Shown here one piece after another: positions 3,107 through 56,589 of a DNA stretch of 64,000 bases; within the stretch, counting starts at the first letter, position 1, and each line of letters starts with the position of its first letter. Under the pieces are notes generated by a model. It saw only the letters and a program-made list of their open reading frames with translations. It did no database searches and had not been told where the DNA came from. The stretch is from Octopus sinensis (Eukaryota). The translations under genes were made by a program, and so were the position numbers. The stretch spans positions 48,174,001 through 48,238,000 of the forward strand of contig NC_043005.1 in the NCBI RefSeq assembly GCF_006345805.1, in the 5' to 3' direction.

Positions 3107-3350
3107 TACGTGGTCTGATCAATAAGTATCAAGAATATTGCTATAGTAACGAAGTTAAAGCATGCAGTATAAAGCTCGGCACTGATTGACCTCGAACTCT
3201 GCAGTGCATGCGCACTAAGGCTTAACGTTCTAGCTCACTCCCGCTGTTTGCAGCAATGCTCAGAAGGAAGATGTGTAGCGTGTAATCGTCGTGCTGACCA
3301 TGACAGAGAAAGTTGAACAGAGAATCTGCATTAAATTTTGCCAAAAGCTT
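3107..3350 (+). mobile_element. mariner transposon 5' fragment
   Basis: TIR-like tacgtggtctgatcaataagtatc; ATG at 3300 gives MTEKVEQRICIKFCQKL, a typical mariner transposase N-terminus, then truncated. Confidence 0.8.
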
Positions 3351-3607
3351 AAACAAGCACATTGTTTCAGTGTTAAACCTTGCCTAAACCTAAAAATGAA
3401 ATTCTGTAATTCATGATATTCTAGTTCTAAGTGGTTACTATTTGTCTAGTAGATGCAGGGGAGATATATCTTTAATTATATCATTATGTTTAGTATGTTT
3501 GGATAGAAGAAAGGGTTTCAAATGATGAGAGTTTCACAATAGTATTATGTTTGGAATTAAGTAAAGAACGTTGGTCAACCTTAATAGTTTCGTAGCAAGT
3601 ATATGTG

Positions 3608-3839
3608 TTTCTTTATTGCCCACGAGGGGCTAAACATAGAGGGGACAAACAAGGACAGACAAATGGATTAAGTCGATTACATCGACCCCAGTGCGTATCT
3701 GGTACTTAATTTATCGACCCCGAAAGGATGAAAGGCAAAGTGGACCTCGGCGGAATTTGAACTCAGAACGCAACGACAGACGCAATACCGCTAAGCATTT
3801 CGCCCGGTGTGCTAACGTTTCTGCCAGCTCGCCGCCTTA
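3608..3839 (-). mobile_element. SINE family A, full length, Tx1-type tail
   Basis: 20-bp TSD tttcgtagcaagtatatgtg at 3588-3607 and 3840-3859. Confidence 0.92.
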
Positions 3840-4686
3840 TTTCGTAGCAAGTATATGTGCACAGTTTGCCTGTCTACCTTTAAATACCCCAATATCGGCC
3901 CATAACGCCATGTTTTCTACAAGTGGTCACATGACATGGTCACGTGATGGTTAAGTCCTTCAAGCTTTACACGGGTTAGGTCATCCCATAACGTGAAGGA
4001 GCAGCCAAGCGCAGGAAAACTATGTTAGTTCGCTGGAGCCTACCATCAGCTTCAAAAGAGGAACCTTTTCCGTTTTTCTTCAGTGAGATGAGATGCATGG
4101 TCGAGTTCAAATTTCGGCGTAGAGGAGGTTTTTTTTTCGCAGGTAGCCTTTGATGCATACGTCTTTCCTGTCTTCCAGTAGAAGTCACGTCACGTTCTTG
4201 CTTTCCTGTTCTATTCAAGAATGTACTGCGTGAGAAACTAATATGTATATTTTCTGACGCTATCATTCAAGATGAATTACAACAACTTTGCCGTGTTAAT
4301 GCTCTTTAATGGGTTGAATAAATCGTCGCATTTAATCTTACCTCGTTTTCTCGTTCTTCCTTTATCTGCATACACACATATATTGGAACTCAAGCCAGCT
4401 TAATTCTTCAACTAACTCACCTCGTTAAAGTCTCTAAAAAATCGCACGAACGTAAATGGTAGATCGTTTTCAAACCACGTTGATAAGAATTTAACGATTT
4501 CAATATGGGCCATTCCAAGTAATAGCGAATGTTTTAGGCTTTCAAATTGAAGATATATTCACCAATTGAAGTGGGGGTACTTTTAGTAAATGCCTAGAAA
4601 ACTAACGGCAATAAGTGTAATATCTTCCTTTGAATTTGGAAGTGAAACCAATATAGAATTTGAAAAATATATGTATATGTATGGAA

Positions 4687-5042
4687 ACAGGCGTGGCTGT
4701 GTGGTAAGAAGTTTGCTTCCGGGTTCAGTACCACTGCGCGGTACCTTGGTCAAGTGTATTCTACTCGAGCCGACCAAAGCCTCGTGAGTGGATTTGGTAG
4801 ACGGTAAGTGAAAGGAGCCCGTCGTATATATCTGTGTGAGTGTGTCTTTGTGTTTTTGTTTGTCCCCCACCACCGCTTGGCAACCGGTGTTGGTCTGTTT
4901 ACATCCCCGTAGCTTAAAAGTGACCGACAGAATATGTACTAGGCTTTAAAAAAGTTCTGGGATCTATTTGTTCAATTAAAAACCTTTCAAAGTGGTGCTC
5001 CAGCAGGGCCGCAGTCTAATGACTGAAACATACAAAAGATGA
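4687..5042 (+). mobile_element. SINE family B
   Basis: Head ggcgtggctgtgtggtaag; tail ggtgctccagcagggccgcagtctaatgactgaaac. Confidence 0.85.
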
Positions 5043-5639
5043 TAGATTAACAGTAGATTCATAAACTACATTATTACGTTTTCATTAATTATTGGGTTAA
5101 CAATTTTCTTTCACTCTACAATTACGCTTTTTATCAGGTCTTAGCAAAGAATTCCTAGCGACAGGTAGAAAATTACTGGCAATGATATTAGAAGAAATTT
5201 CATAATTACAATCCTTGTGAAGGCAGCGAGATGGCAGAGTCCTAGGCACGCTAGACGAAATGCTTAGAGGTATTTCGTCCGTTGTTACGTTCTGAATTCA
5301 AATTCCGCCGAAGTCGACTTTGCCTTTCATCCTTTTGGGGTCGAAACACTGGAGCCGATGTAATCGACTAGTCCCCACCAACTCCAAATTTTAGGCCTTG
5401 TGCCTTTAGTAGTAAGGATTATTACCATCCTCTTTTTCACCCTCCCTAATTTACAACCAATACAAGAATCATACATACTGCCCTTATCATTTTGATAGTT
5501 TTAGTGCTATTATCAATATTGTTAATATTATCATTAGTACAACTATTAATACAATCTTTATCATTAGCATTATTGTTGGTGTTATTATTGCTATTGTTTA
5601 TGGCATTATTATTATTATTATTATTAGTTTTATTATTAA

Positions 5640-6043
5640 AGCGACGAGTTGGCAGAATCGTTATCCTGCCAGGCGGGCGAAATGCTTAGCGGTATTTCGT
5701 CTGCCGTTACGTTCTGAGTTCAAATTCCACCGAGGTCGACTTTGCCTTTCATCCTTTCGGGGTCGATAAATTAAGTACCAGTTACGCACTGGGGTCGATG
5801 TAATCGACTTAATCCATTTGTCTGTCCTTGTTTGTCCCCTCTATGTTTAGCCCATTGTGGGTAATAAAGAAACAGGTATTTTCTGCCTTTATGTTCTGAG
5901 TTCAAATTCCGCCGAGGTCGACTTTGCCTTTCATCCTTCCGGAGTAGATAAAATTAGTGCCAGTTACACACCGGGGTCGATGTAGTCGACTTAATCCCTT
6001 CCCCCAAATTTGAGGCCTTGTGCTTCTAGTAGAAAAGATTATT
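5640..6043 (+). mobile_element. Nested SINE A dimer
   Basis: The first unit ends aataaagaaac, then ggtattttctgcc resumes a second SINE body that has the alternative tail ggccttgtgc...agtagaaaagattatt. Confidence 0.85.
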
Positions 6044-6979
6044 ATTATTATTACTTTCATTATCCATGTCACGACTCATACTTTTATAAGAGTTGCGATA
6101 AGGATCTATACTTTTACAAGTAATTTATTTTGAGGGACAAGTATTATTAAATCTATAATTTTTATACTTCTTTAATTTAGATCGATTATTGGCTGTTATA
6201 ATAATTACTAAATTAGACATAGTAGAATTAGAAAGTTTAACAGTAGACTTATTGAATATTTGATAGTACTTATGTTGAGGTGCAAAATTGTGCGCAATTT
6301 TCATTTTGACATATCTTGCAAGTGGAACGTTTTACCGCGTAATATTCCGTTTTCTGTTTCATCCATTCAGTGATAGGTTATTATGATGAATGATGGAAGA
6401 GTTATTCCTTACCTTAGTAAATGAATAAACAGAGAAGTGTTTATTATAGAATATGGAGACTGGGAAATATTGCTTGCTACTATCAGTATTTGAAATTTGA
6501 CAGTGATTTTTAAAACTTTAAAATCTTGAATTACTAGAAGCTAGCAAAGAATCATATTTCTTCAATAGTAACAATGGTTTTAAAGTTTTCTATAGTATGT
6601 GGTACTCTGATTGTGATTTACAGAAATATAGTTCTTACTTATAGTGGGACTGATAGGTCTTGACAAGGAGAGTTTAGTATAATTTTTATATTTAGATGGT
6701 GAAAGATTATATTTATCTTTGCTATTTGACAAAATAAAACAAAAACTATAACTACCCCACTTTCATTAGACAGCTTGTGACCATTTACATTTATAATATG
6801 CTTTTTTAATTTTGGCACGGGGCCAATATTTTAACGGGAAGGATTTGATTACATCAACCTCAGTGCTCAACTGGTATTATTTTATTGACCCTGAAAGAAT
6901 GAAATGCAAAGACAACAGAATTTGAAATCAGAAAGTAAAGAAAGACTAATGCTGTTAAACATTTTGTCTGACATACTGA

Positions 6980-11111: not shown

Positions 11112-11515
<404 letters not shown>

Positions 11516-11549: not shown

Positions 11550-11814
11550 GATAGATAGATTCTTTCCGGTATATAAATTTATCAAAAGGATGTTTTATAA
11601 TATATATGTATGTGTGTCTTTGTATTTGTCCCCCATCACCTCTTGACAACTTGTGTTCGTTTGTTTATGTCCCTGTAACTCAGTGATTTCACAAAATACA
11701 CCGATAGAGTAAGTACCAATCTTCAAAAAAGAAAATGGCTGGAGTCAATTTATTCAACTAGACACTTCAAGGAGTTGCTCCATCATATTATACAGTAAGT
11801 TAATTTAATATTAA

Positions 11815-12327
11815 AATATTCTTTTCTACTTTAGGCACAAGGCCAGAAATTTTGGGGGAGGGAGCCAGTCGATTAGATCGACCCCAGTATGCAACTGGTA
11901 CTTAATTTATCAACCCCGAAAGGATGAAAGACAAATTCAACCTCGGTGGAATTTGAATTCAAAATGTAAAGACAGACGAAATTAATATTCTTTTCTACTC
12001 TAGGCACAAGGCCTGAAATTTTTTGTGGGGAAGAGGCCAGTCGATTAGATCGACCCCAGTATGCAACTGGTACTTAATTTATCAACCCCGAAAGGATGAA
12101 AGACAAATTCAACCTCGGTGGAATTTGAACTCAAAATGTAAAGACAGACGAAATTAATATTCTTTTCTACTCTAGGCACAAGGCCTGAAATTTTTTGTGG
12201 GGAAGAGGCCAGTCGATTAGATCGACCCCAGTACACAACTGGTACTTAATTTATCAACCACAAAAGGATGAAAGGCAAAGTCAACCTGGGCAGAATTTGA
12301 ACTCAGAACGTAAATACAGATGAAATC
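11815..12327 (-). repeat. Head-less SINE A trimer (~174-bp units)
   Basis: Three near-identical units, each starting at atttcRtctg on the minus strand; flanked by aatattaaaatatt on both sides. Confidence 0.88.
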
Positions 12328-32784: not shown

Positions 32785-33138
32785 TATTTCTTTATTAACC
32801 TATAAAGGTTTTACATAGTGGGGACATTACAAGGACAGACAAGGGACATTCAGGGTACAAACTCGCTTCTTACATACAGTGTGAAAAACCGGATGGATTT
32901 ACATATATTTTGAATGAGGGTTAAAAATATACATATAAACGATGATCGGATGAGTTTTGGGTCCGAGTTAGTGAGTTAACTCGCCGGTTGGTTATCCTTT
33001 TTGGTAATCTTTTTCCTTCCTTTTATGCTCCGACCGACCGTGCAAGCACAGCCTCGTGCATTCTCATCTTTCTTACCACTGTCGTCCATCTTTTTCCAAA
33101 CGCTCTTTGTGGCAGGCTCCTCCTCTCCAGGCGGATCT
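32785..33138 (-). mobile_element. 5'-truncated Tx1-family LINE (different subfamily)
   Basis: IRLERRSLPQRAFGKRWTTVVRKM aligns with the ORF2 end LWLEKRCLSECTFQKRWKYVARVL; ends aataaagaaat; imperfect TSD agaga(g/ga)..cagaagaga. Confidence 0.8.
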
Positions 33139-34629: not shown

Positions 34630-35016
34630 AGGCAGCGAGCTGGTAGAAACGTTAGCACGCCGGGTGAAATGCGTAGCAGCATTTCGTCTGCTGTTACGTT
34701 CTGAGTTCAAATTCCACCAAGGTCGACTTTGCCTTTCATCCTTTCGGGATCGATTAAATAAGTACCAGTTACGCACTAGGGTTGATCTAATCGACTTAAT
34801 CCGTTTGTCTGTCCTTGTTCGTCCCCTCTGTGTTTAGCCCCTTCTGGGTAGTAAAGAAATAGGTATTTATTTTGTTCTGAGTTCAAATTCCGCCGAGGTC
34901 GACTTTGCTTTCATCCTTTCGGGGTCGACAAATTAAGTATCAGTTGTATACTGGGGTCGATCTAATCAACTGGCTCCCTCCTCCAAAATTTCGGGCCTTG
35001 TGCCTAGAGTAGAAAA
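34630..35016 (+). mobile_element. Nested SINE A dimer
   Basis: Outer 18-bp TSD taatattcctcttgtata (34612-34629, 35017-35034); internal junction gtaaagaaat|aggtattt. Confidence 0.9.
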
Positions 35017-35982: not shown

Positions 35983-36215
35983 GAAGGCGGCGAGCTGGCA
36001 GAAACGTTAGCACGCAGGGCGAAATGCGTAGCCGTATTTCGTCTGCTGTTACGTCCTGAGTTCAAATTCTGCCGAGGTCGATTTTGCCTTTCATCATTTC
36101 GGGGTCGATAAATTAAGTACCAGTTACGCACTGGGGTTGATATAATCGACTTAATCCGTTTGTCTGTCCTTGTTTGTCCTCTCTGTGTTTAGCCCCTTGT
36201 GGGTAGTAAAGAAAT
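35983..36215 (+). mobile_element. SINE A inserted into another SINE (35755-36335)
   Basis: 13-bp TSD ggtacgtgtgtct (35966-35978, 36217-36229). Confidence 0.9.
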
Positions 36216-36507
36216 AGGTACGTGTGTCTGTTGAGTACTCAGCCACTTGCACGTTAATTTCACGGGCAGGGTATTCCCTTGACTGGATCAACTGAAACCT
36301 TTGCCGTCGTAACTGAGTGCCAGGCCACAGCCACAACTAACTGATTGGAAACCACATCTCTACAAATCAAGCTATACCATCTAGGGAGTTTTTGTTTTCT
36401 AATTGCCAGGGTCAGTTGATAGAAGTTTACAATTCACTAAGTGATTTATGTGAGACTTTAATGTATTTACACAATTTTTGTTAAGTTTTCAGGGTTTTTT
36501 TCACATA

Positions 36508-37683: not shown

Positions 37684-39255
37684 GCTGTATCGTTCAAAAT
37701 AATCGAAGAAATTCCATCCTTTTTAAAATTAAATGTATTGAATAGTTTTCACATATTTCAATATTTAGATTTCTAAGTTGATCACAAATTCTATTTAAAA
37801 ATGTAACTCATTGTCTAAGAACTGCTCTGTACAATACGTTCTTCATATTTTCTCTATTAAGAAAAGTTCTTAAGTTTTCTCACAACAAAGATAAGTCCAT
37901 TGTATTCCAATTTCTAATATAAATCGCTAAATCCTATCACTAAATAAAGGTAACATAGTGTCCGTATGACAAAGAGAAGTCCTTCACTATTGTTAGTCGA
38001 ATAATATGGGTTCTCTCGTTGCGTTACTTTTACTAAGATTGCTTGTAGTCTCACTTTACAAGTTGAAGACGTGAATGAGCTTTGTTTTAAACTTAAATAA
38101 TATCCTCTCCATCACATCACTGGCTAGTATCTTCACGTGGATCGCAACAAATGTCATTTCATTTCCTTCATTTCTGTTTAACAAATATTTTATAAACAAA
38201 GGATAACGAAAGAATTTATTTCGGAAACTTAGAAGTGTCCATAATTCTAGATTCATTTTCATTAAAAATAAATATAGATTTCATGTACTTTGCGAAACTC
38301 GAATCTATGATGTATATGTTGAACAATTTTAAATTGTTAGCAAATAATGGTTTTCTTTTATTACAATTCCATTCACATCTACAACGCAAGATAGGAATAT
38401 AAATCAATGTAAATTCTTGACCAGTGCTTTATTTCAATGACCCTAGAAAGATAAATAGTTAAGCTGATATCAATAGGATTTGAACCCAGAACGTAGAAAT
38501 CAGTTAGTAAATATTGATTTCAAATTTTGGCACAAGACCAGCAAATTCGGGGGAGAGAGCTAGTCGATTATATCAACCCCAGTACTTAGACTGGTACTTA
38601 TTTTATCGATTCCGAAATGCAAAGTGGAATTTGAACTCAGAACAAGTAAAGACGGAAGAAATTCTTAGACAAGAGGCACAGAATTTGACGTCAGGAAGAA
38701 TCCTCTATTCTAAATTCCCAAAAGTAATATTCCTAAACATGGTTGAGTCTAGCACTCCGGACAAAATCCTTAGCAGTGTTTCATCCGTCTTTACGTTCTG
38801 GGTTCAAATGCCACCGAGGTCGAATTTACCTCTCAGCCCTTGGGAAGTCGATGAAATAAGAAGCAGTTGAGCACTGGAGTCAATGTAACCGACTTATTCT
38901 TTTCTTCGAAACTACTGGCCTTGTGCCAAAATTTGAAACTAGTATATAGTAACTGCGAAGGCGGCGAGCCGGAGGAATCGTTCGCACACCCGACAACATG
39001 CTTGTCGGCATTTCGTCTGTCTTTACCCATTCTGAGTTCAAATTCCACCGAGGTCGACTTTGCCTTTCATCCTTTCGGGGGTTGATAAAATAAGTACAAG
39101 TTGAGCACTGGTATCAATGTAATCGACTTAACCTCTCCCCCGAAACTGCTGGCCTTGTGCCAAAATTTGAAATTGATATAGGGTTGAGTCACCTGAGAAG
39201 AGAATTTATAGGGAAATAGTTGCGTCTACAAACCACAAAACAAACATATATTTAT

Positions 39256-39674
39256 TTCTTTATTGCCCACAAGGGGCTAAACATAGAGAGGACAAACAAG
39301 GACAGACAAAGGGATTGAGTCGATAACACTGACCCCAGTGCATAACTGGTACTTATTTGATCGACCCCGAAAGGATGAAAGGCAAAGTCGAACTCGGCAG
39401 AATTTGAACTCAGAACGTAACGGCAGACGAAATACCTATTTCTATTTCTTTACTACCCACAAGGGGCTAAACACAGAGAGGACGAACAAGGTCAGACAAA
39501 CGGATCAAGTCGATTATATCAACCCCAGTACGTAACTGGTACTTATTTAATCGACCCCAAAAGGATGAAAGGCAAAGTCGACCTCGGCGGAATTCGAACT
39601 CAGAACGTAACGGCAGACGAAATACGGCTACGCATTTCGCCCGGCGTGCTAACGTTTCTGCCTGCTCGCCGCCC
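39256..39674 (-). mobile_element. Nested SINE A dimer, both units with Tx1-type tails
   Basis: Junction gtaaagaaatagaaat|aggtatttcgtctgccgttac; outer TSD aaaacaaacatatatt. Confidence 0.9.
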
Positions 39675-46739: not shown

Positions 46740-49700
46740 GTAAACAAAATAGTAATAGAATGCTGGCTGAGAAGTGAGCCAAATAAAAGAGGCTTCATGA
46801 ATCAAAAGAAGAGAATATGGGATGAAAAAGTAGGTTTTGAAACATCCGCCCAGCGACTGATAGACCAAGCAAGAACAATCTGTAGAAACGACAGGATTAC
46901 GGAATAGAGATTGAAGAAATTCAGAGAAACATAGAAAAAAAAAAAGAGAGCAGAAGGAGAGTGAAACAGCAGTAGCAGAAAGTAGTAGTGAAGGGGTAAG
47001 AGATGTAGAACATGAAACATGGAAATCGCAGGGTACCAGAGAATACTGATAAAGTAACTAATGAAAACGATCTAGATCGACAAGTGACAGTAAGTACTGC
47101 ACAAGACTTGAATGATGAAGAGGAGATTTTAGAAATGTTGTGAGTTAAAATGTTTGATGGGAACAAGGAAGTACCACCAAATGTAAGGTATATATGAACA
47201 GGAAAAATTGAGGAGAGCCACAGGCAAAGTAAATGACGTTTTATACTTGATTAAAACAGAAAACATCAGTGCAACAAACCAGCTAATCATAGCTGCTGCT
47301 AATGTCCTAGATAACATAATCTACAAACGAAAAACTGAAGATATAAAAGCAAATGAAAGGAAAGAACCAAACTGGAGTAAGAGAATACGAATGAAGCTGG
47401 AAAAGATACGGAAAGAACTGAGACAATTGAATAAGATAATGAGAGGAGAGCTCAAGAATTAGTAATCAGAAAATTGAATGGATAGTGCAAGTTAGAAGAG
47501 AGGGGAAAGCAAACAAACAAACAGTACATGAAGAACTGACACAAAAGGTGACCGCATTAAAGGCCAAACTGAAGAGATATAATGCTAGTTGCAACGGTTT
47601 CGAGCAGAACAGACTCAGAATAGACTGTTCCAGTCAAAAAGAAGGCGTTTTTTTTTGTTTTTGTTTTTTTGTTTGTGCTTTTTTTTTTTAAAGAAATAGA
47701 GGGAAGCCAAGACCAGGAACTGATTCCAGATACGGAAGAAAGTAAAGAATTTTGGAGAAGGCTGTAGAACAGGCCGGCGAGACATAAAGAAAACGCGGAG
47801 TGGCTAACAAAGACGGGAAGACAACTTACAACTGTACCAAGTTAAAAGGACGTCAAAATTAATTAATATACAGAGACAGAAGTTTTTAAAAAAATACCAA
47901 AATTGGAAAGGACTAGGCCCGGATGGAATAGAAGGCCATTGGCTGAAGAACTTTACACAGTTGTATGAAAGGATTGCTGCACAATTGGATGACTGCCTGC
48001 AGCAAGGTCACGTTCCTGCCTGGATGACAAGGGGACGACGCTGCTATGCCTCAAGCATCCCTTGAAAGGGAACTTAGCATCAAATTTTCGACCTGTTTAC
48101 CACTTATGAGGAAGCTTATGACCGGTGTATTGGCGGAAGAGTTATACAACCATATGGAAAATAACAATCTACTTCCAGAAGAACAGAAAGGATGCAGGAA
48201 ACAAAGTAAGGTAACAAAAGATTACTTATTAGTTGATAAAATAATCATTAGAAATTGGAGACGAAGATTGACGGGGATGAATGTAGCATGGTGAGATTAC
48301 AAAAAAAGCATATAATATGGTACCACACAGTTGGATAAGTAAAACAATGAGCATGTTTGGAATAGCAAAAAGCATTGAGAAAATTCTTAATGAAAGTATG
48401 AAACATTGGAATACTGAATTAATCGGATCGGAGGAAAGCAAAAACTCGGGAAAGTGAACATCAGACGTGGAATATTCCAAGGTGATAGCTTATCTCCATT
48501 ACTATTCGTATTGGCCATAACACCGCTCACTGTGATACTGCGAAACTTTAAAATTGCCTACGATTTGAGAAAAGGAAATGGTCAGATAGATCATTTCCTT
48601 TCCATGGATGATATAAAGGTTTATGCGAAAAATGAGAAACAGCTTGAAAATTTTGTACATACTATCTGCATTTTCTCAAATGACATATGTATGGAATTTG
48701 AGATATAAAAGTGCGCTATATTGAAAATGAAACGAGGAAGATTTGGAAGAAGCCGAGGAATTGAAATGCCAAATGGGCAAACAGTGAGAACGGTTGAGAA
48801 AGGACAATGGTATTAGTACTTGAGAATACTGGAATCTGTCGAAATAAAAAATGAAAAAATGAAACAAATTACTAGTAGGGAGTACACAAGGAGAGTAAGA
48901 AAATTATTGCAGTCAAAGCTGAATTCAAAAGATCTTAGTGAAGTAATATATTCAAGAGCAATACTCTTAATCAGATATCGAATTGAAATTACAGACTGTA
49001 CCAAAAACGATATAAAGAAACTTAACAGAAAAACTAGAAAGTTGTTGACAATGCATGGAGTCCACCATCCGAAAGCTGATATCAACCGGCTGTACTTGAG
49101 GAGAGACTTGGATAGAAGAGGCTTAATAGCAGTAGAAGAATATGTAAAGATAGAAAGTAAACATCTAATAGAGTATTTACGGAGCAGCGCAGAAAAACGA
49201 CTAAAGACAGTGAATAAAGAACAGGTGATGAAGCGCGTAATAGGAGAAAAGGACAAGAATGAAATACAAAGAGAGCACGTCAGACAGATTGAAGAGAATC
49301 CCCTGCATGGCCACTTTTGGAAAGCCATTGAAGACGTATGTGAGACAAAATCCTGGGCTTGGTTAAAAAAAGAGTAATTAAAAGAAAGAAACCAAGAGCC
49401 TAATTGTAGCAGTCTAAGATCAAGCGATAAAAACTAACAACTTGAGAAAAAATATATGTAGAAATAATGTGTCAGAAAAATGTAGAGCCTGTGGAATTTG
49501 GAACGAGACAGTGGCATGCATTGTGGAAGAATGCTCCAAGTTGGCACAGGAAGAATATAAGAAATGGATGACCGACCAGGTTGTAAAAGTTTTATACTGG
49601 AAACTGTGCCAGAAATGGGGATTTGAAGGTGGAATCATATGGGACAATCATCGTGACAAAAGAGAACCGAAGTTGGAGAAATGCAAGATTTTGTAAGACT

Positions 49701-50148
49701 TTCCAGTTCCAACGGACAAGAAGTTAGACAATAAGAGACCAGACATAACAGTTATAGATGAGGTAAAGCGAAGTTGCTTACTTATAGACCTGTCATTCCC
49801 GTTTGACGCTAGGATCGTAAAGAAAGAGGAAGAAAAACAAAACAAATACAGTCCTTTAACATTTGAAATAGAAGGAATTTGGTACATGAAAACAGTGAAG
49901 GTCGTACCTATAATAATTGGTGCGTTGAGAACAGTAAGCAAAAATATAGACAGATGGTTGAAGGAGATTGGAATAGATTGCCCAGTAGAGCTCCTAGGGA
50001 CAGCAAGAGTTATCAGGAGGGTTCTAAGCATTTGAAAGACTGCTGAAAACTTGTGGATACCAAAAGTTACAGGTTGTAACCCGTTACCCACATAAATCCT
50101 ACCAGGAATGAGACCGAACCTGAATGAAACCAAAATAATAATAATAAT
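46740..50148 (+). mobile_element. Decayed, near full-length R4/Dong-clade LINE (RT plus restriction-like endonuclease)
   Basis: Broken frames with LPEEQKGC, RRGIFQGDSLSPLLF, MDDIK, HPKADINRLY, CRACG...C zinc finger and DNKRPDI; many stops and frameshifts; ends in (AAT)n. Confidence 0.9.
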
Positions 50149-50739
50149 CCTCTTAACTATAGGCACAAAGCCCGAAATTTTGGGGGAGGGAACCAATCGA
50201 TTACATCGACCCCAGTACTCAACCTGTTCTTATTTTATCGACCCCGAAAGGATGAAAGGTAAGTCGACTCCGATGGAATTTGAACTCAAGATGTAAAGAC
50301 GGACGAAATGCCGATTTCTTTACTACCCACAAGGGGCTAAGCAGAGGAGACAAACAAGAATAGACAGACGGATTAAGTCGATTATATCGACCCCAGAGCG
50401 TAACTGGTACTTAATTTATCGACTCCGAAAGGATGAAAGGCAAAGTCGACCTCGGCGGAATTTGAACTCAGAACGTAACGGCAGACGAAATACGAATTTC
50501 TTTATTGCCCACCGGGGGCCAAACATAGATATGGACAGTACAACTGATGGGATCAGTGAATCGATATGATTTTACATAAATGTGACATCAAAAATAAAAT
50601 ACAATACATAAAAATCGAATGGAATACACAGTACAAAAACAATACAAATGAAGCGATGATCAAGTTACGCTCCGATCCCACAAGCCCCGATCTACCGCTG
50701 ATACCTTTTTATTTTTCCTTTTTTTTTTTCCTCGTCTAT

Positions 50740-53700
50740 TCACACGGTTCCTTGCACGCACAACACTCGTGCAACATACTTCCATCTCTTTTGGAACGTA
50801 CACTCTGACAGACACCTCTTCTCCAGCCACAGTTTCCTTTTCAAATGAAAAGAAAAAAAGGATCGTAAATTGTCACCAGAGATAAAGTTGCCTGTCTTAA
50901 TTCCTTTTATCCTAGTATTCCATACAGCCTCTTTTGCTATTGCTACAACCGTGAGAAAACAATTCTTACCTTCGTTCGTTAGAACTCCCGGTGGGTCAAT
51001 TTTTATAATTGACTCAGTCGACAGCCGTACTCTTCCTTCGCCGGACAACAGATGTTCAGCATAAGCCCACATTTCAGTTATCTCCGGACACTGAACAATA
51101 GCGTGAGGGACGGTTTCCCTGTCCCCACCGCATCTTGGACAGGTCGGCGACTGACGTTTACCATGTCTTGCGAGCTTATCCCAAACGGGCAAGGCACCTC
51201 TGTAGCATTGCCAGGTTAAGGACTTTTGGAAGTTGTCCAACGTTCTCAACCCGAATGTACGATGAAACAAGCTGTCCAGTTGAATAAATCCGAGACCTAG
51301 AGTCGACCCCAGGCCATCGTCGCATTCAGACTCTACCAACCCACTATATAAAATCCGTGTGGAACCCCCACCGCTGGCGTTGCCCGAGCGCCGGAACAGC
51401 AAGAGGGCCTTACGGCACTCTTTATGCCACTCACTCGACCTCGGTCTACGAGAACACCAGGCTTCCTGTTCGCAAAAACTCTTGAACTCAGGGAACATTT
51501 GTCTGGCCAGCGGAGACCACACCCGTTCACTATCCAGGAGAATCCAGAGGTGCCTCAACCTCAACGCATGTCTGCGCATCATTAACCAAGGCATCCCTAA
51601 ACCTCCATTTAAAGGCTTTTGACAGCAGACAGAGCGTTTCACAAGTGGCGACCTGCCCTTCCACAAAAAGCGAAAGAGCTGTCTCTCCAACCTGATCAAC
51701 CACGAATCCGGACAGGGCACGACAGTCAGGCGGTAGGTAATGACCGATGCGATAAACACATTGGCCACTTCCGCCCTCCCTTTCAGGGATAGCCACCGCC
51801 AAGACCAGGTCTTGACTACTGCAGCCACCCTGCTCAATACCTCCGTCCAGTTCTTCTCTATCTGGAGGCCTGGTCCAAACCAGACTCCCAGCAACTTAAC
51901 CGGTCCCTCCGTCCAGCGCCTAACAACACTGTCTGAAGGCATCGACTTGCCAACCCAGGTGCCGAGCTGCAAGCCGACCGACTTTTCCCGGTTAATCTTT
52001 GCTCCTGCTACCTCCTCGTAAGCCTCAATAGTCTTACCTACTTCACGTAGGCGTGCCACTGTGGTTACACTGATAGTGATATCATCCGCGAAAGCCGTAA
52101 CAAACTCCTCTAGTCCTGGTTCTCTCGGGATGCCACTCAACCTTTGCAGTAATGGCTCGAGAGCCATCACATACAAAAGTGGTGAAAGCGGACATCCTTG
52201 ACGAACCGAGCGTCTGATGCAGAACGGCTTCGAAAGGAAACCGTTCACCCGAACTATCGAGTCAATGTTGTGGTACAAAGCGATAAACCACCTGAGGAAG
52301 CCAAGGCCCAGGCCAAACCGCGCAAGTACAGTCGCTAGGTATCGATGGTCAACCCTATCAAAAGCTTTAGACTGGTCCAAATGCACCAATGCCCCACCTT
52401 TGCCAGATTTATTACCAAACCTCTCTATGGTATAGCGAATAAGATGGAGGGTATCCTGAATGGTTCTGCCTGGGATGGCACATGTCTGTGCCTCCCCGAC
52501 TATACCATTCGCGACACGCGCCAACCTTTTTGCTAGAACCTTGGCCAAAATCTTCACTTCTGCGTTTAACAGAGTGATGGGCCTGAAATTCTCTAGAACG
52601 TCCCCCTTGTCCGGGTCCTTTCTGACCAACGTCACTACTCCCCGGCGCACAGATCTGGGGATAAACCCATTCTGTTTCCAGTTCGCGTACACGTCAGTCA
52701 GTAGTTGCCCGAACAAGTCTGGCATACATTTATACAGCTCGTACGGAAGACCATCAAGTCCCGGTGACTTACCCGCTTTACAATCGGCCAAAGCCTCCAT
52801 CACCTCCTCAAGTGTGATTGGCCCTTCGCAAGACTCCGCATCCGACCCCGAGAGGCACGGCAGCCCGGTAAGAAAGTCCTCGAGGGCTCTCCCACCACCA
52901 GGACCGCCGTCACCCCCGAACAGCTGGGCGAAGTACTCCCGAAAGACCTCACACATTTTCTCGGGTTCGTTTATCAAGACACCATTTTGATTCGTCAAAG
53001 ACCGAATAGAGGAACTATTTCCTTGCCGAGCTTCCACCACTCGGGCCCATCCAGCGGCTTTGATTCCTTCACTTCCCATTGCACGTAACTTAGCTCTGGT
53101 AATACTTCCCATGTGGTGGGCTTCAAGATGCTGGTTTAACTCCAGTCTTTTCACCCTCGCTTGGTCTGTATTACCAGTCCTCCAGGCTTCTTCTAGTTCC
53201 TTAACTAGACCATATCCTATTTTACGTCCCTTCTTAGCTAAACTTATGCTAAACCTAATAGACTCATATTTGATGGCTCTTTTTAGGGCGTACCACCATT
53301 TGTTATTAATGATGGTACCTGTTAATGCCCTCTGTATTAACATCTTGATCCGCTTTCTGTACTCCTCAATCGCCAAAAGGGACGTATTGAGTTTCCAGTA
53401 GCCAGATCCCTGTCTATGCAACTTATCTACCGTCAGTTTACAGGTAACCATCTTGTGGTCACTGTAGCTGACTAGAAAAAACTGTGGACACTCAACTATG
53501 GACTTATCTTTTTCTCTAATTAAAATCCTATCTAGATATGTTCTGGTAGACCCGTCACTATTTGACCACGTCCACTGTGGAGTGTTCGGGTGCTCCAACC
53601 TATATGGATCTGCTAGCTGAAATTGACTTAGCAGATCCCGAAAGCCTGTGTTACATTTTCTGTTCATGTTCGAGTTTGAGCCAACACAATCTGTGTGTGC

Positions 53701-54240
53701 TGCACATATTGTATTAGAGTCTCCTAACACTACTAGTGAATGCGACGTGGCTAGGAACTTTCCTAGGCCACGAAAATATTCAGTTTGCGGGCCAATAATG
53801 TTTGGTGCATAAATAGCGACCAGCCTGATTGTCTTGCCACAACTGAATGTCAAGTCGAGAACGACCAGCCTGCCTTCTGGGTCAGAAAAAACCAACTTTT
53901 TCTCGGCTACCCGGTTTCTTTTTAGTAGGACCAACACCCCACCCCCACCTCCCGCCCGACTCGGAGAAACGTATTTCTCGTAGCCGTTCAGGAGGGGGAG
54001 CAGATCTCTTGGCCCCTTCACCCGGGTTTCCGTTGCAACAATTACATCCAAATTTCTCGACCTGATGTCATTCAGAAAGCGTCCTTGCTTCCAGCTTGAC
54101 AACAGGCCATGAACATTTAAACAACCAATGTGAATACCATCACTTACCTGTTTAATTAGGATTGTCCGGTGGAGGGGGACCCTCCACCTTTTTTTTATCC
54201 AGGGTCGGAGGTGGACGGTCTTGGGAAATAGATTTGTCAA
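50740..54240 (-). CDS. LINE ORF2: APE endonuclease, reverse transcriptase, C-terminal zinc finger
   Basis: LNVHGL, ATET, GDSN, LDRI, SDH (APE); PGLDG, FRPITLLN, KAFDRV, QGCPLSP, FADD (RT); CPRC...H...C. The start codon is uncertain. Confidence 0.95.
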   Translation of the reverse strand: MTNLFPKTVHLRPWIKKRWRVPLHRTILIKQVSDGIHIGCLNVHGLLSSWKQGRFLNDIRSRNLDVIVATETRVKGPRDLLPLLNGYEKYVSPSRAGGGGGVLVLLKRNRVAEKKLVFSDPEGRLVVLDLTFSCGKTIRLVAIYAPNIIGPQTEYFRGLGKFLATSHSLVVLGDSNTICAAHTDCVGSNSNMNRKCNTGFRDLLSQFQLADPYRLEHPNTPQWTWSNSDGSTRTYLDRILIREKDKSIVECPQFFLVSYSDHKMVTCKLTVDKLHRQGSGYWKLNTSLLAIEEYRKRIKMLIQRALTGTIINNKWWYALKRAIKYESIRFSISLAKKGRKIGYGLVKELEEAWRTGNTDQARVKRLELNQHLEAHHMGSITRAKLRAMGSEGIKAAGWARVVEARQGNSSSIRSLTNQNGVLINEPEKMCEVFREYFAQLFGGDGGPGGGRALEDFLTGLPCLSGSDAESCEGPITLEEVMEALADCKAGKSPGLDGLPYELYKCMPDLFGQLLTDVYANWKQNGFIPRSVRRGVVTLVRKDPDKGDVLENFRPITLLNAEVKILAKVLAKRLARVANGIVGEAQTCAIPGRTIQDTLHLIRYTIERFGNKSGKGGALVHLDQSKAFDRVDHRYLATVLARFGLGLGFLRWFIALYHNIDSIVRVNGFLSKPFCIRRSVRQGCPLSPLLYVMALEPLLQRLSGIPREPGLEEFVTAFADDITISVTTVARLREVGKTIEAYEEVAGAKINREKSVGLQLGTWVGKSMPSDSVVRRWTEGPVKLLGVWFGPGLQIEKNWTEVLSRVAAVVKTWSWRWLSLKGRAEVANVFIASVITYRLTVVPCPDSWLIRLERQLFRFLWKGRSPLVKRSVCCQKPLNGGLGMPWLMMRRHALRLRHLWILLDSERVWSPLARQMFPEFKSFCEQEAWCSRRPRSSEWHKECRKALLLFRRSGNASGGGSTRILYSGLVESECDDGLGSTLGLGFIQLDSLFHRTFGLRTLDNFQKSLTWQCYRGALPVWDKLARHGKRQSPTCPRCGGDRETVPHAIVQCPEITEMWAYAEHLLSGEGRVRLSTESIIKIDPPGVLTNEGKNCFLTVVAIAKEAVWNTRIKGIKTGNFISGDNLRSFFSFHLKRKLWLEKRCLSECTFQKRWKYVARVLCVQGTV

Positions 54241-55681
54241 AATCCCGTCTCACCACCGACACAGAATTATCAGGTGGAGGGGGAATCTCCACCTTTTCCT
54301 TTTCTCGCGGGATCGGAGCTGGTAATCCATGAAATATCGACTTGTTAAAATCTAATCTCAATGAAGATACAGTCTTTCTGTACTTATTTTGTAGAATTCT
54401 ATAAGTCTTATTTGAGACTTCATATATGTCGTAATTGATAAATTCCTCTGAAAGGTTATCAATTTTTTTTACAGTCTTTATGAGTTGAATGTCTCTCATG
54501 AGCTCAGTATCTTTAGTGTATACGGCTATTATGCCTTTTTCTTCTTTTTCTCTTCTGGCAGTCTTTTTTGGTCGTTGTTCTGTAGTAGTCGCCGCTCTCG
54601 GCTGGGTTGCTGGTTGTATTTTTCTTTTGTTTGTTGTTTTTTTCTCATCTGTTTCTTCTTTATCTTCTTCCTCTTTGTCTTTTTTCTCCTCTTCCTCCTT
54701 TTCTTCATTTTCATTGCAGTTCCTTCGAATGTGGCCTAATTGACCACATAAAAAACATCGAGGTTTTCGGCCCTCAACAAACACCACGAGGTTCTCCTCC
54801 CCTACCTCAATTGTCTCAGGAATTGTTTGAATTATTTTAGGGTCCGCTTGAATGAGAAGATTAATTGTTTGACCATCCCAGCGTGGGTTTTCCGTAGCGG
54901 TAGCCTGGAGGAGAGTAATTTTTTCTACCTCTTTGATTAGGACTGCCGCCAACAACCACATAGGTTCGACCTCTGGCGGGACCCTTGTAATTTTTATTCG
55001 CGACGTCCTCATCCCCATATAATAGGGTATTAACTCCACGTCGTTCGTTTTCAACGTTTCAACTGAGTTCTTGTGTGCTATTTCTTTATTGGTGAACCTT
55101 ACTTCCACCGTTCCGAATTTTTTTCCTCTTCTCAGAAATACTACGTCGCCCAATATTGGCTTTAAGCACTTTTCTATTTTCTCTTCTGACATTCTTTCAA
55201 TTTTTCTATTTTGTAGACAATATGTTTTGAAAATTATTGTTTTTTGCTTTTCTTCCTGTAATAACTTTTGCGGAGGTTCAATTTTCACACTGTTGTCAGT
55301 TATTTCCATCATTTTGCTGTATTTCATAATTTCGCTTTTATTCGTCGACAGTATCTGGGTTCCACCCCCAGCAGCCAACGCAAAACTTTTTTTTCCATTT
55401 TTTGGTTCTATCTGGATGCTAGGCACATCAATTATTCTCTTCGACACAATGCCTTTGTTCTCTGGCAAAGTCGGAAACTCTTCTGGTGAAAGTTCTGACG
55501 AGCTCTCAGACACATCTCCAAAAATATCAAATATATTATCCTCTCTGCTATTCCTTCTTGTAGCGGGGGAAACCCCTATTTCCTTGTCTGTAGTTGGCTC
55601 CTCGCCGGACATGTATTTCCTCCTCTCAACAGGAGAAACAAGTATTTCTGCTCCAACGGTAGGCTCCATGCTAGACGACAT
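54152..55681 (-). CDS. LINE ORF1, gag-like nucleic-acid-binding protein
   Basis: First ATG at 55681; CCHC knuckle CFLCGQLGHIRRNC; acidic/basic tract; duplicated C-terminal motif DFxKSI...KVExPPPPDN. Confidence 0.9.
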   Translation of the reverse strand: MSSSMEPTVGAEILVSPVERRKYMSGEEPTTDKEIGVSPATRRNSREDNIFDIFGDVSESSSELSPEEFPTLPENKGIVSKRIIDVPSIQIEPKNGKKSFALAAGGGTQILSTNKSEIMKYSKMMEITDNSVKIEPPQKLLQEEKQKTIIFKTYCLQNRKIERMSEEKIEKCLKPILGDVVFLRRGKKFGTVEVRFTNKEIAHKNSVETLKTNDVELIPYYMGMRTSRIKITRVPPEVEPMWLLAAVLIKEVEKITLLQATATENPRWDGQTINLLIQADPKIIQTIPETIEVGEENLVVFVEGRKPRCFLCGQLGHIRRNCNENEEKEEEEKKDKEEEDKEETDEKKTTNKRKIQPATQPRAATTTEQRPKKTARREKEEKGIIAVYTKDTELMRDIQLIKTVKKIDNLSEEFINYDIYEVSNKTYRILQNKYRKTVSSLRLDFNKSIFHGLPAPIPREKEKVEIPPPPDNSVSVVRRDFDKSISQDRPPPTLDKKKVEGPPPPDNPN

Positions 55682-56074
55682 TCTTCCCCCCAAAGGGGGA
55701 ATGAACAACGCGTGCTACCACAAGCACTAAGTGTTTTCAATTGAAAACTCCAACAGTTAAGTTATTCAACAGTTTAACAAGAAACAACAGTTGTTAACAA
55801 TATTAACACCACGAAACAGCAATTCTTATTTCACGAACACATGTGCGACAGACGAAATACGGCCACGCATTTCGCCCGGCGTGCTAACGTTTCTGCCAGA
55901 CGGACGAAATGCCGCTGAGCATTTCTCCCGGCGCAGTAACGATTCCGTCAGCTCGCCACCTTCGTCAATGTGAGTCTAGTTTGAAACCAATACCAATAAT
56001 AGAGGGAAATGGTTTCAGCGAATATCTGATATTTTGCTGACAAGACTGATGAAAATTTATTGAAATCAAACCTT

Positions 56075-56405
56075 TATAAGTTGGCACTCGGTCGGTTACA
56101 GCAAGGGTTCCAGTCGATCCGATCAACGGAACAGCCTGCTCGTGAAATTAACATGCAAGTGGTTGAGCACTCCACAGACACGCTTATCCTTCGCTTAGTT
56201 CTTAGGAAGATTCAGTAGTACTGAGAATGTGACAAGGCTGACCCTTTGAAATACATGTACTACTCATTTTTGCCAGCTGAGTGAACTGGAGCAACATGAA
56301 ATAAAATATCTTGCTCGAGGACACAACACCCTACCGGGAGTCGAACTCATGACCTGAAGACCGTAAGCCGACTTTAAGACCTAACCATTAAACCACGCGC
56401 CTTCA
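56075..56405 (-). mobile_element. tRNA-derived SINE (same family as the 35755 host)
   Basis: Head ggcgcgtggtttaatggttagg...gagttcgactccc. Confidence 0.75.
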
Positions 56406-56589
56406 CACCCTTACAGATCATTTTGGCTTTAACCGTAAAAATGCAGAAGAATATTTTACAGATCGATATATTTGTAAATATGATAATTCCTACATAGAGA
56501 TATTTCAGTTCAGATCTATTTAATGAATAAAACGCTGAGACTTCTATTTTTCCATAAGTAATTTCGGGTCATGTAGTTATTTCCCATAT

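Follow-up and report, generated by a model that had tools for sequence, protein, structure and literature searches.

A SINE family of Octopus sinensis is recurrently joined to a fixed position in its own head, a slot shared with a young L1-clade LINE

Introduction

At several places in one stretch of octopus DNA, copies of a short interspersed element (SINE) are joined to one another at the same nucleotide, which raises the question of whether the element repeatedly inserts into its own family or whether such dimers are inherited as units. The stretch (hereafter the window) comprises 64,000 nucleotides of Octopus sinensis (assembly GCF_006345805.1, contig NC_043005.1, positions 48,174,001–48,238,000, forward strand), and the element belongs to a family that we call SINE A. 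A preliminary description, made from the letters alone, had read the dimers at ~5872, ~34860, ~39436 and 50313 as site-specific self-insertion with relaxed specificity. Our analysis supports this reading by a genome-wide peak of junctions at SINE position 48, double-headed nests with target duplication, and dimer halves that do not descend together. In addition, we find a 16-nt duplication of positions 48–63, independent hosts of a long interspersed element (LINE) in the same slot, and a coupling between tail variant and landing motif, in which T at tail base 219 goes with GGT and site 48, and C with AGA and site 15. A SINE joined to position 48, or less often 15, of its own family likely inserts there by target-primed reverse transcription. 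Since the young LINE occupies the same slot, the enzyme used is likely of the L1/Tx1 type.

Results

SINE A and its junctions in the window

SINE A consists of a single head and body with three alternative tails; tails 1, 2 and 3 end in GTAGAAAGGATT, TAAAGAAATA and TTTGAAACC, respectively. The tail-2 SINE is made up of a tRNA-like head, a body and a LINE-like tail, and all SINE positions refer to its 231-nt consensus built in this analysis. The family occupies at least 3.7% of an even sample of the genome (140 evenly spaced 10-kb stretches, 1.4 Mb of 2.72 Gb). Pairwise identity is 0.91 among tail-2 copies, compared with 0.78 for tail 1 and 0.73 for tail 3, which indicates that tail 2 is younger. 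The head contains A- and B-box-like motifs, read by eye against the box consensus. It has no tRNA match in Rfam and no call by ARAGORN, folds as a long hairpin (z −3.2), and was not identified by comparison with Rfam or with the tRNA-Phe of the window. Tail hairpins folded no better than shuffled sequences. From a resemblance of its central domain, SINE A may be an OR1/OR2 CORE-SINE. The right half of the focal dimer (5875–6040) combines a tail-2-like body end with tail 1, and perhaps represents a tail-1 subfamily that gave tail 2 by a tail swap.

All four reported junctions are present, and at each of them tail 2, ending in AAAGAAAT(A), lies against SINE position 48. At 5874/5875 (+), AAAGAAACA is followed by GGTATTTT; at 34861/34862 (+), AAAGAAATA is followed by GGTATTT and then a deletion; at 39437/39436 (−), the tail is followed by an additional GAAATA and then GGTATTTCG; and at 50314/50313–50312 (−), AAAGAAAT is followed by C and then GGCATTTCG. 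A fifth junction at the same base (50495/50494, −), overlooked in the preliminary description, corresponds to a full-length LINE's 3′ end. None of the four loci is a copy of another: their left halves are 0.90–0.93 alike, their right halves 0.79–0.85, and the right tails are of two types. In the focal left half, the head has 5/43 mismatches and the body 5/166; this head may possibly be partly derived from the outer copy.

A separate array at 11806–12326 (−) holds three near-identical tandem tail-1 units without heads (positions 51–213). These units begin three bases past site 48, contain no tail 2 and represent a local duplication.

A genome-wide hotspot at position 48

The exact site-48 junction occurs 31,246 times genome-wide and the exact site-15 junction 3,212 times, while reversed-pattern controls gave 0. 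Among 106 tail-2 ends in the even sample, 36 lie at position 48 (some of them local duplicates), 7 at position 15, 2 at deletion variants of these sites, and 61 elsewhere. The site is present in 239 copies per 2.8 million strand-bases, giving a chance level of 8.5e-5 per base against the observed 36/106. The single peak expected along the SINE consensus is thus sharp at position 48, but a second site at position 15 accompanies it. All nested copies at 48 and 15 are in sense orientation; two of the 61 dispersed tails (L061 and L174) lie within the body of an opposite-strand SINE, at a GGTA motif. In contigs from the runs of two other organisms, the tail again forms the consensus loose end before position 48 (X7, 861; X8, 466).

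Positions 47–63 form an imperfect inverted repeat, CGGYA...TGCCG (by eye), which could permit similar nicks on both strands.

A LINE-in-SINE-in-SINE nest

The junction at 50313 is the outer layer of a minus-strand nest in which a young LINE sits within a SINE that itself sits within an older SINE (Table 1). Each layer duplicates SINE positions 48–63 as a 16-nt target duplication. Judged by its two predicted open reading frames (ORFs), APE endonuclease, reverse transcriptase and C-terminal zinc region, the LINE belongs to the L1 clade. The best Protein Data Bank match of ORF2 is human L1 ORF2p (E 3.8e-63), with R2 at 1e-20 or weaker, and the LINE protein has a 62% match to an Argonauta protein. 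The label ‘Tx1’ is our assumption, taken from general traits of the group and the preliminary description rather than from a tree; no named Tx1 reference is among the 120 homologues listed of 298. The LINE does have a trait of the Tx1 group, sequence-specific insertion with a duplication of fixed length, here the 16-nt slot.

The 3′ end of this LINE is followed by SINE position 48 at 30/30 loci (the best 30 of 40 scored of 360 candidates, including the window copy and two with the same flank), and 43/43 distinct 5′ ends adjoin the slot, 42 at position 63 and one at 60. The copies are 99.5% alike, compared with 88.8% for the host SINE bodies (twenty copies, L037 omitted). Because the LINE is far less diverged than its hosts, it must have inserted many times and recently, into SINE copies older than itself. 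With 171 exact junctions and 140 exact tail words genome-wide, the family is small. All 20 fetched copies are full length, one of them internally rearranged.

Two side observations concern this element. Candidates number 143 for the 5′ end and 360 for the 3′ end, and the 20 full-length copies (L031–L050) had been picked by their last 304 bases; 5′ truncation is slight for an L1-clade element. At L265, the LINE lies in a slot behind a tail and not behind a head, which indicates that targeting does not depend on the 47 bases upstream.

SINE and LINE share a tail, and the SINE tail aligns with both LINE families of the window, better with the family at 32785 (scores of 73 and 61, without a null), whose tail is also closer to that of the SINE. 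A partner that matches the SINE in both age and target was not found: the young LINE uses the same slot yet is much younger and blind to the allele there, whereas the 32785 family is of similar age and has another target. We rejected the 32785 family as the driver of the SINE, as 0/21 of its ends lie at the SINE site. The young LINE is probably not the driver either, or else the SINE RNA adds a pairing tag.

Landing motif, tail variant and allele

The landing sites of the 61 dispersed copies start with GGTA in 16 cases, GGTT in 5, TATA in 12 and AGAA in 8 (GGTA background 0.0027, p 1e-27). Where readable, the motif is present in both copies of the duplication (GGT 6/8, AGA 4/4, TAT 8/9), and was therefore in the target. 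The preliminary description had called the duplications of the solo copies at 3608 and 39256 unrelated; these two are indeed unlike the motif, but dispersed copies generally share the first bases of the site (16/61 GGTA). Motif match decays with distance. In the even sample, tail base 219 is T in 35/36 tails at site 48 and C in 7/7 at site 15 (p 2.5e-7), and outside SINEs the same base is T in 21 and C in 1 at GGT, and C in 8 and T in 1 at AGA.

The base at position 48 itself is polymorphic across the family, with 24,113 G and 17,974 C genome-wide (43% C). SINE junctions comprise 31,246 with G and 357 with C (99% G), while LINE junctions have C in 43 of the first 100 listed (by eye). As the LINE share equals availability, the young LINE ignores base 48, and the SINE does not. 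An excess of the C allele at LINE junctions (21/30) and an RNA-derived base 48 in the LINE were both considered and dropped on the same count of 43 among the first 100 listed genome-wide.

Heads and outer duplications of multimers

Plain nesting should leave two heads. Double-headed SINE nests exist at L140, L203 and L207 and in the window at 55960–50146. A single duplication surrounds the whole multimer in 15/22 scored cases (score ≥10; null 2%), and the heads of 26 heterodimers have 6.0% mismatches, compared with 5.5% in dispersed tail-2 copies and 11–22% in tail-1 and tail-3 copies.

Since its insertion in place is certain, the LINE serves as a control for overwriting. Its 3′-slot copies contain 14 non-consensus bases, only 3 of them found again in the 5′ copy (by eye), and some 5′-slot variants recur between unrelated hosts, which argues that the 5′ slot copy is mostly written from the RNA of the element. 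Outer-type recurrence in SINE dimers is 2/13 and 1/14, and outer-type bases fall along the head, from 7/14 at position 19 to 3/14 at 36 and 1/14 at 63 (position 19, T versus A, p 0.043). In 26 tail-2 dimers, linkage between sites of the head and those of the body gave no information. A correlation between head and LINE was not used because truncated heads had been aligned globally, and contigs from four public runs (3300–6900 and 49300–56500) were swamped by paralogous copies, so that no locus-specific joint could be read. None of the listed runs that hold the element is recorded as RNA; a contig of run X15, which may be RNA, extends 28 nt beyond the 5′ end of the LINE into the SINE head, too slight a trace to serve as evidence.

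Mechanism and alternatives

We propose that the first nick falls before position 48 and the second after position 63. The incoming complementary DNA (cDNA) would end in a head homologous to that of the host, anneal to it and replace it, leaving one head and one outer duplication; we consider this replacement probable. The SINE RNA may read a few bases past its tail into the previous landing site, forming a tag that would pair with the primer, so that a tagged copy could go back to its site of birth or to motifs that resemble this site. Some arrays would be lengthened by local duplication of the 184-nt unit. A requirement for such a read-through tag (GGUA or AGAA) is mildly favoured, because it would explain the tail–site coupling, the decay of the match with distance, and one copy (L159) with an extra GGT that is absent from its target. 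Two older sister LINEs with stricter and different preferences could instead have driven the two tail variants.

Several observations weigh against this mechanism. Beyond the even sample, the tail–site coupling loosens (site 15, n=16: 11 C, 4 T, 1 A), and a sister enzyme of stricter preference would explain the G-only junction equally well. That possibility stays alive because other families of the group have other targets, landing on (TATC)n or on sites that start with TCT; even the sister family with the closer tail, at 32785, lands elsewhere. The young LINE inserts at either allele, its end is TT instead of TA, and it postdates the SINE burst by far (99.5% versus ~91% pairwise). Multimers carry one head in 76 cases and two in 3. 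The mismatch rate of heterodimer heads is so close to that of tail-2 copies that nearly the whole head would need to be replaced, and re-copying of read-through transcripts predicts the same. The test at position 19 is small and one of several, the freshness of outer duplications did not separate these two models of the head, and most heterodimers were drawn from similarity searches.

Whether the dimers instead descend from one or a few dimeric masters, without repeated targeting, can be judged from the descent of their halves. The invariant junction (99% G) and the coupling of tail variant to junction type would fit such an origin, but left and right halves do not co-descend, and we reject a single dimeric master. 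Among 27 heterodimers, taken mostly from similarity searches rather than the even sample and with one locus holding a duplicated pair, left and right distances are uncorrelated (Mantel r 0.002, p 0.50). Right halves are of three tail types and unclustered: the nearest neighbour is a dispersed copy in 23/35 and another right half in 7/35, and nearest neighbours are 0.911 alike for right halves versus 0.961 for left halves. Diagnostic mutations shared among dimers, the sign of a master that the preliminary description had raised, did not appear: 0/325 pairs of dimers have a rare variant in common in both halves. The closest relative of the focal dimer among 40 scored of 6440 is 91% alike, and none of 40 scored candidates of 315 is near-identical to the deleted junction at 34862 (94% at best). 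The halves are thus not inherited together as in an Alu-like dimeric family. With a non-homologous LINE at the same slot in unrelated hosts and double-headed nests in existence, descent of all dimers from masters is extremely improbable. Another account is local duplication of the 48–231 unit, in which the internal GGTATTT slips against, or exchanges unequally with, a similar motif past the tail; such duplication has been proposed for bivalve SINE arrays (PMC11481361). Indeed, 9/30 adjacent tail-2 pairs lie above the 99th percentile of between-locus identity (0.956) and have private changes in common. Not all junctions are thus independent insertions. The other 21/30 pairs are at or below that percentile (0.86–0.95), and local duplication cannot yield tail-2/tail-1 or tail-2/tail-3 dimers (38/76 multimers in a search-enriched set), nor LINE insertions. 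It is a contributor to multimers and not their origin; heterodimers refute it as the sole cause, and as a general account it is highly improbable.

The single heads allow two further accounts that retain site-specific insertion. Double-headed source loci could form in this way, with most single-headed dimers being transcripts that read through from the inner promoter and were re-copied from very many sources. Most multimers do have one outer duplication and an inner-type head, the outer duplication begins with the motif that goes with the tail variant of the last unit, and the SINE consensus contains no T run longer than three to stop RNA polymerase III. However, with no siblings in 325 pairs and no left–right correlation, sources in the hundreds would be needed, and a few heads are of the outer type (L223, L072). 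No young dispersed copies were found among the 22 tail-1 and 28 tail-3 copies sampled (nearest neighbours ≤0.90 and ≤0.86), yet the duplications of heterodimers abut the tail-1 end; read-through would thus require an enzyme acting at tail 1 when no young tail-1 copy was sampled. We regard this as a less likely origin for most of the dimers than head replacement, although replacement by the cDNA head and whole re-copying of read-through dimers may both act. Alternatively, in-place insertion could leave two heads, one of which is later deleted by recombination between them. The 5′ ends would then be of the outer type, of which position 19 holds a hint, and double-headed forms do exist. A near-complete loss (76 versus 3) would be required, the heads should look much older than 6.0%, and the overwritten slot in very young LINE insertions would be left unexplained, which makes head deletion very unlikely.

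Discussion

The junctions at position 48 are a real genome-wide feature and a variant of known target-specific L1/Tx1–SINE systems. The comparison of junctions by allele, and the recourse to the LINE to gauge overwriting, appear to be new here. The comparisons below draw on the accessible parts of the papers cited. In crocodilians, Tx1-Mar LINEs and SINEU elements share a landing site inside Mariner-N4 (Kojima, 2015; PMC4494074). That system resembles ours in its 16-nt duplication, in two preferred positions used by different families, and in stacked SINEs, where tandem SINEU-3 arose from sequential insertion. There, the target is a DNA transposon and whole tandem copies have a duplication between them; in octopus, the target is the SINE's own head, between the A- and B-box-like motifs, and heads merge.

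Alu elements likewise insert into their own family at one base, a hotspot at position 133 in sense orientation with 15,759 cases (Levy, Schwartz and Ast; PMC2836564). That hotspot was ascribed to an A-rich linker and a suboptimal L1 site, and the parts of the paper accessible to us describe no LINE restricted to it. In octopus, by contrast, nesting affects ~40% of all tails, and no LINE end read lies outside the slot. R1 of Drosophila is also site-specific and of the APE type, and its off-target sites share target bases; it differs in its 28S rDNA target, its clade and the lack of a self-targeting SINE (PMC2718515). Target sequence on both RNA ends has been proposed for R1: transcripts would carry it at the 3′ end and in some lineages at the 5′ end too, and its annealing would give precise junctions (PMC2718515). 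Pairing of such an RNA extension with the primer has likewise been proposed for R1 (PMC2718515, PMC7265360). SINE multimers of the blood clam S. broughtonii share one full head, head-truncated units and one outer duplication with those of octopus; unlike here, inner units are also tail-truncated and the arrays are ascribed to unequal recombination, and ‘Tx1’ is absent from the accessible text (PMC11481361).

Octopus has tRNA-derived CORE-SINEs, OR1 and OR2 (Ohshima and Okada, 1994, as cited in PMC4824008 and PMC4758252), and SINE A may be one of these. The accessible text of PMC3747384, PMC3531059, PMC4758252 and PMC4824008 describes no octopus SINE/LINE pair. In the open literature, to which Repbase and most subscription journals do not belong, the site-specific Tx1 elements described have microsatellites, small RNA genes, satellites or other transposons as their targets, and we found no LINE confined to the head of a tail-sharing SINE with head replacement and tail-coupled sites.

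More tentatively, and with some doubt on our part, these parts might form a self-reinforcing, RNA-guided ecosystem, in which the SINE tail came from head-targeting LINEs, the tag is inherited, heads are overwritten, the promoter is split on landing, and an active LINE has the SINE as its only safe haven. Self-insertion, if it is the cause, would account for SINE multimers in their tens of thousands, which annotation software might break up into numerous families; one octopus annotation of recent date reports 900 recently active SINE families, and its accessible text does not mention ‘nested’ or ‘dimer’ (PMC13282606). With tens of thousands of junctions counted by allele, the shares of endonuclease and RNA–primer pairing in target choice, a long-standing question, can be tested from genomes alone. 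Both frames of the window LINE copy are open, and it is suitable for assay.

Other features of the window

The features of the window are collected in Table 1. By their motifs, the broken frames at 48817–50035 look like the C-terminal part of an R4/Dong-type element.

Table 1. Positions of SINE A copies, the nest and neighbouring features in the window.
Feature	Positions	Strand	Remarks
Left half, focal dimer: full tail-2 SINE	5641..5874	+	head, body, LINE-like tail
Right half, focal dimer: tail-1 SINE from position 48	5875..6040	+	ends in (ATT)n
Probable target duplication of whole focal dimer	5′ copy 5612..5637, 3′ copy ~6039-6063	+	ATT-rich, hence weak
Tail-2/tail-1 dimer, junction 34861/34862	34631..35015	+	private deletion; one perfect 18-nt duplication around whole
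Tail-2/tail-2 dimer, junction 39436 after extra GAAATA	39253..39673	−	halves 88% alike; one 16-nt outer duplication
Nest: outer, older SINE head (1-63)	55898..55960	−	5′ target-duplication copy at positions 48-63
Nest: inner tail-2 SINE head (10-63)	55846..55899	−	5′-truncated; 2-nt microhomology with outer head
Nest: full-length young L1-clade (Tx1-like) LINE, 5.35 kb	50495..55845	−	inserted at position 48/63 of inner SINE
LINE ORF1 frame, 520 aa stop to stop	54152..55714	−	zinc knuckle (Pfam zf-CCHC)
LINE ORF2 frame, 1169 aa stop to stop	50740..54249	−	APE endonuclease (Exo_endo_phos), reverse transcriptase (RVT_1), zf-RVT (Pfam)
Nest: remainder of inner tail-2 SINE (48 to tail)	50314..50494	−	
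Nest: remainder of outer SINE (47/48 to tail 1)	50146..50313	−	carries the 50313 junction
Dispersed tail-2 SINE	3608..3836	−	20-nt duplication, TA-rich class
Dispersed tail-2 SINE	35986..36216	+	duplication begins GGTA, as site 48
3′ end of second Tx1-like family	32785-33080	−	147 candidates, 84-96% alike; most start TCT
Third related LINE family	11213-11500	−	ends AATAAAGAAA then (TATC)n; long copy at L113:3999-7800, microsatellite on both sides
Broken frames, 186 and 112 aa	48817-50035	+	end just before the nest
tRNA-Phe(GAA) gene	811-887	−	dispersed tail-2 SINE 40 bases away, at 929; between TA repeats
Second very abundant SINE-like repeat	4690-5040	+	different head
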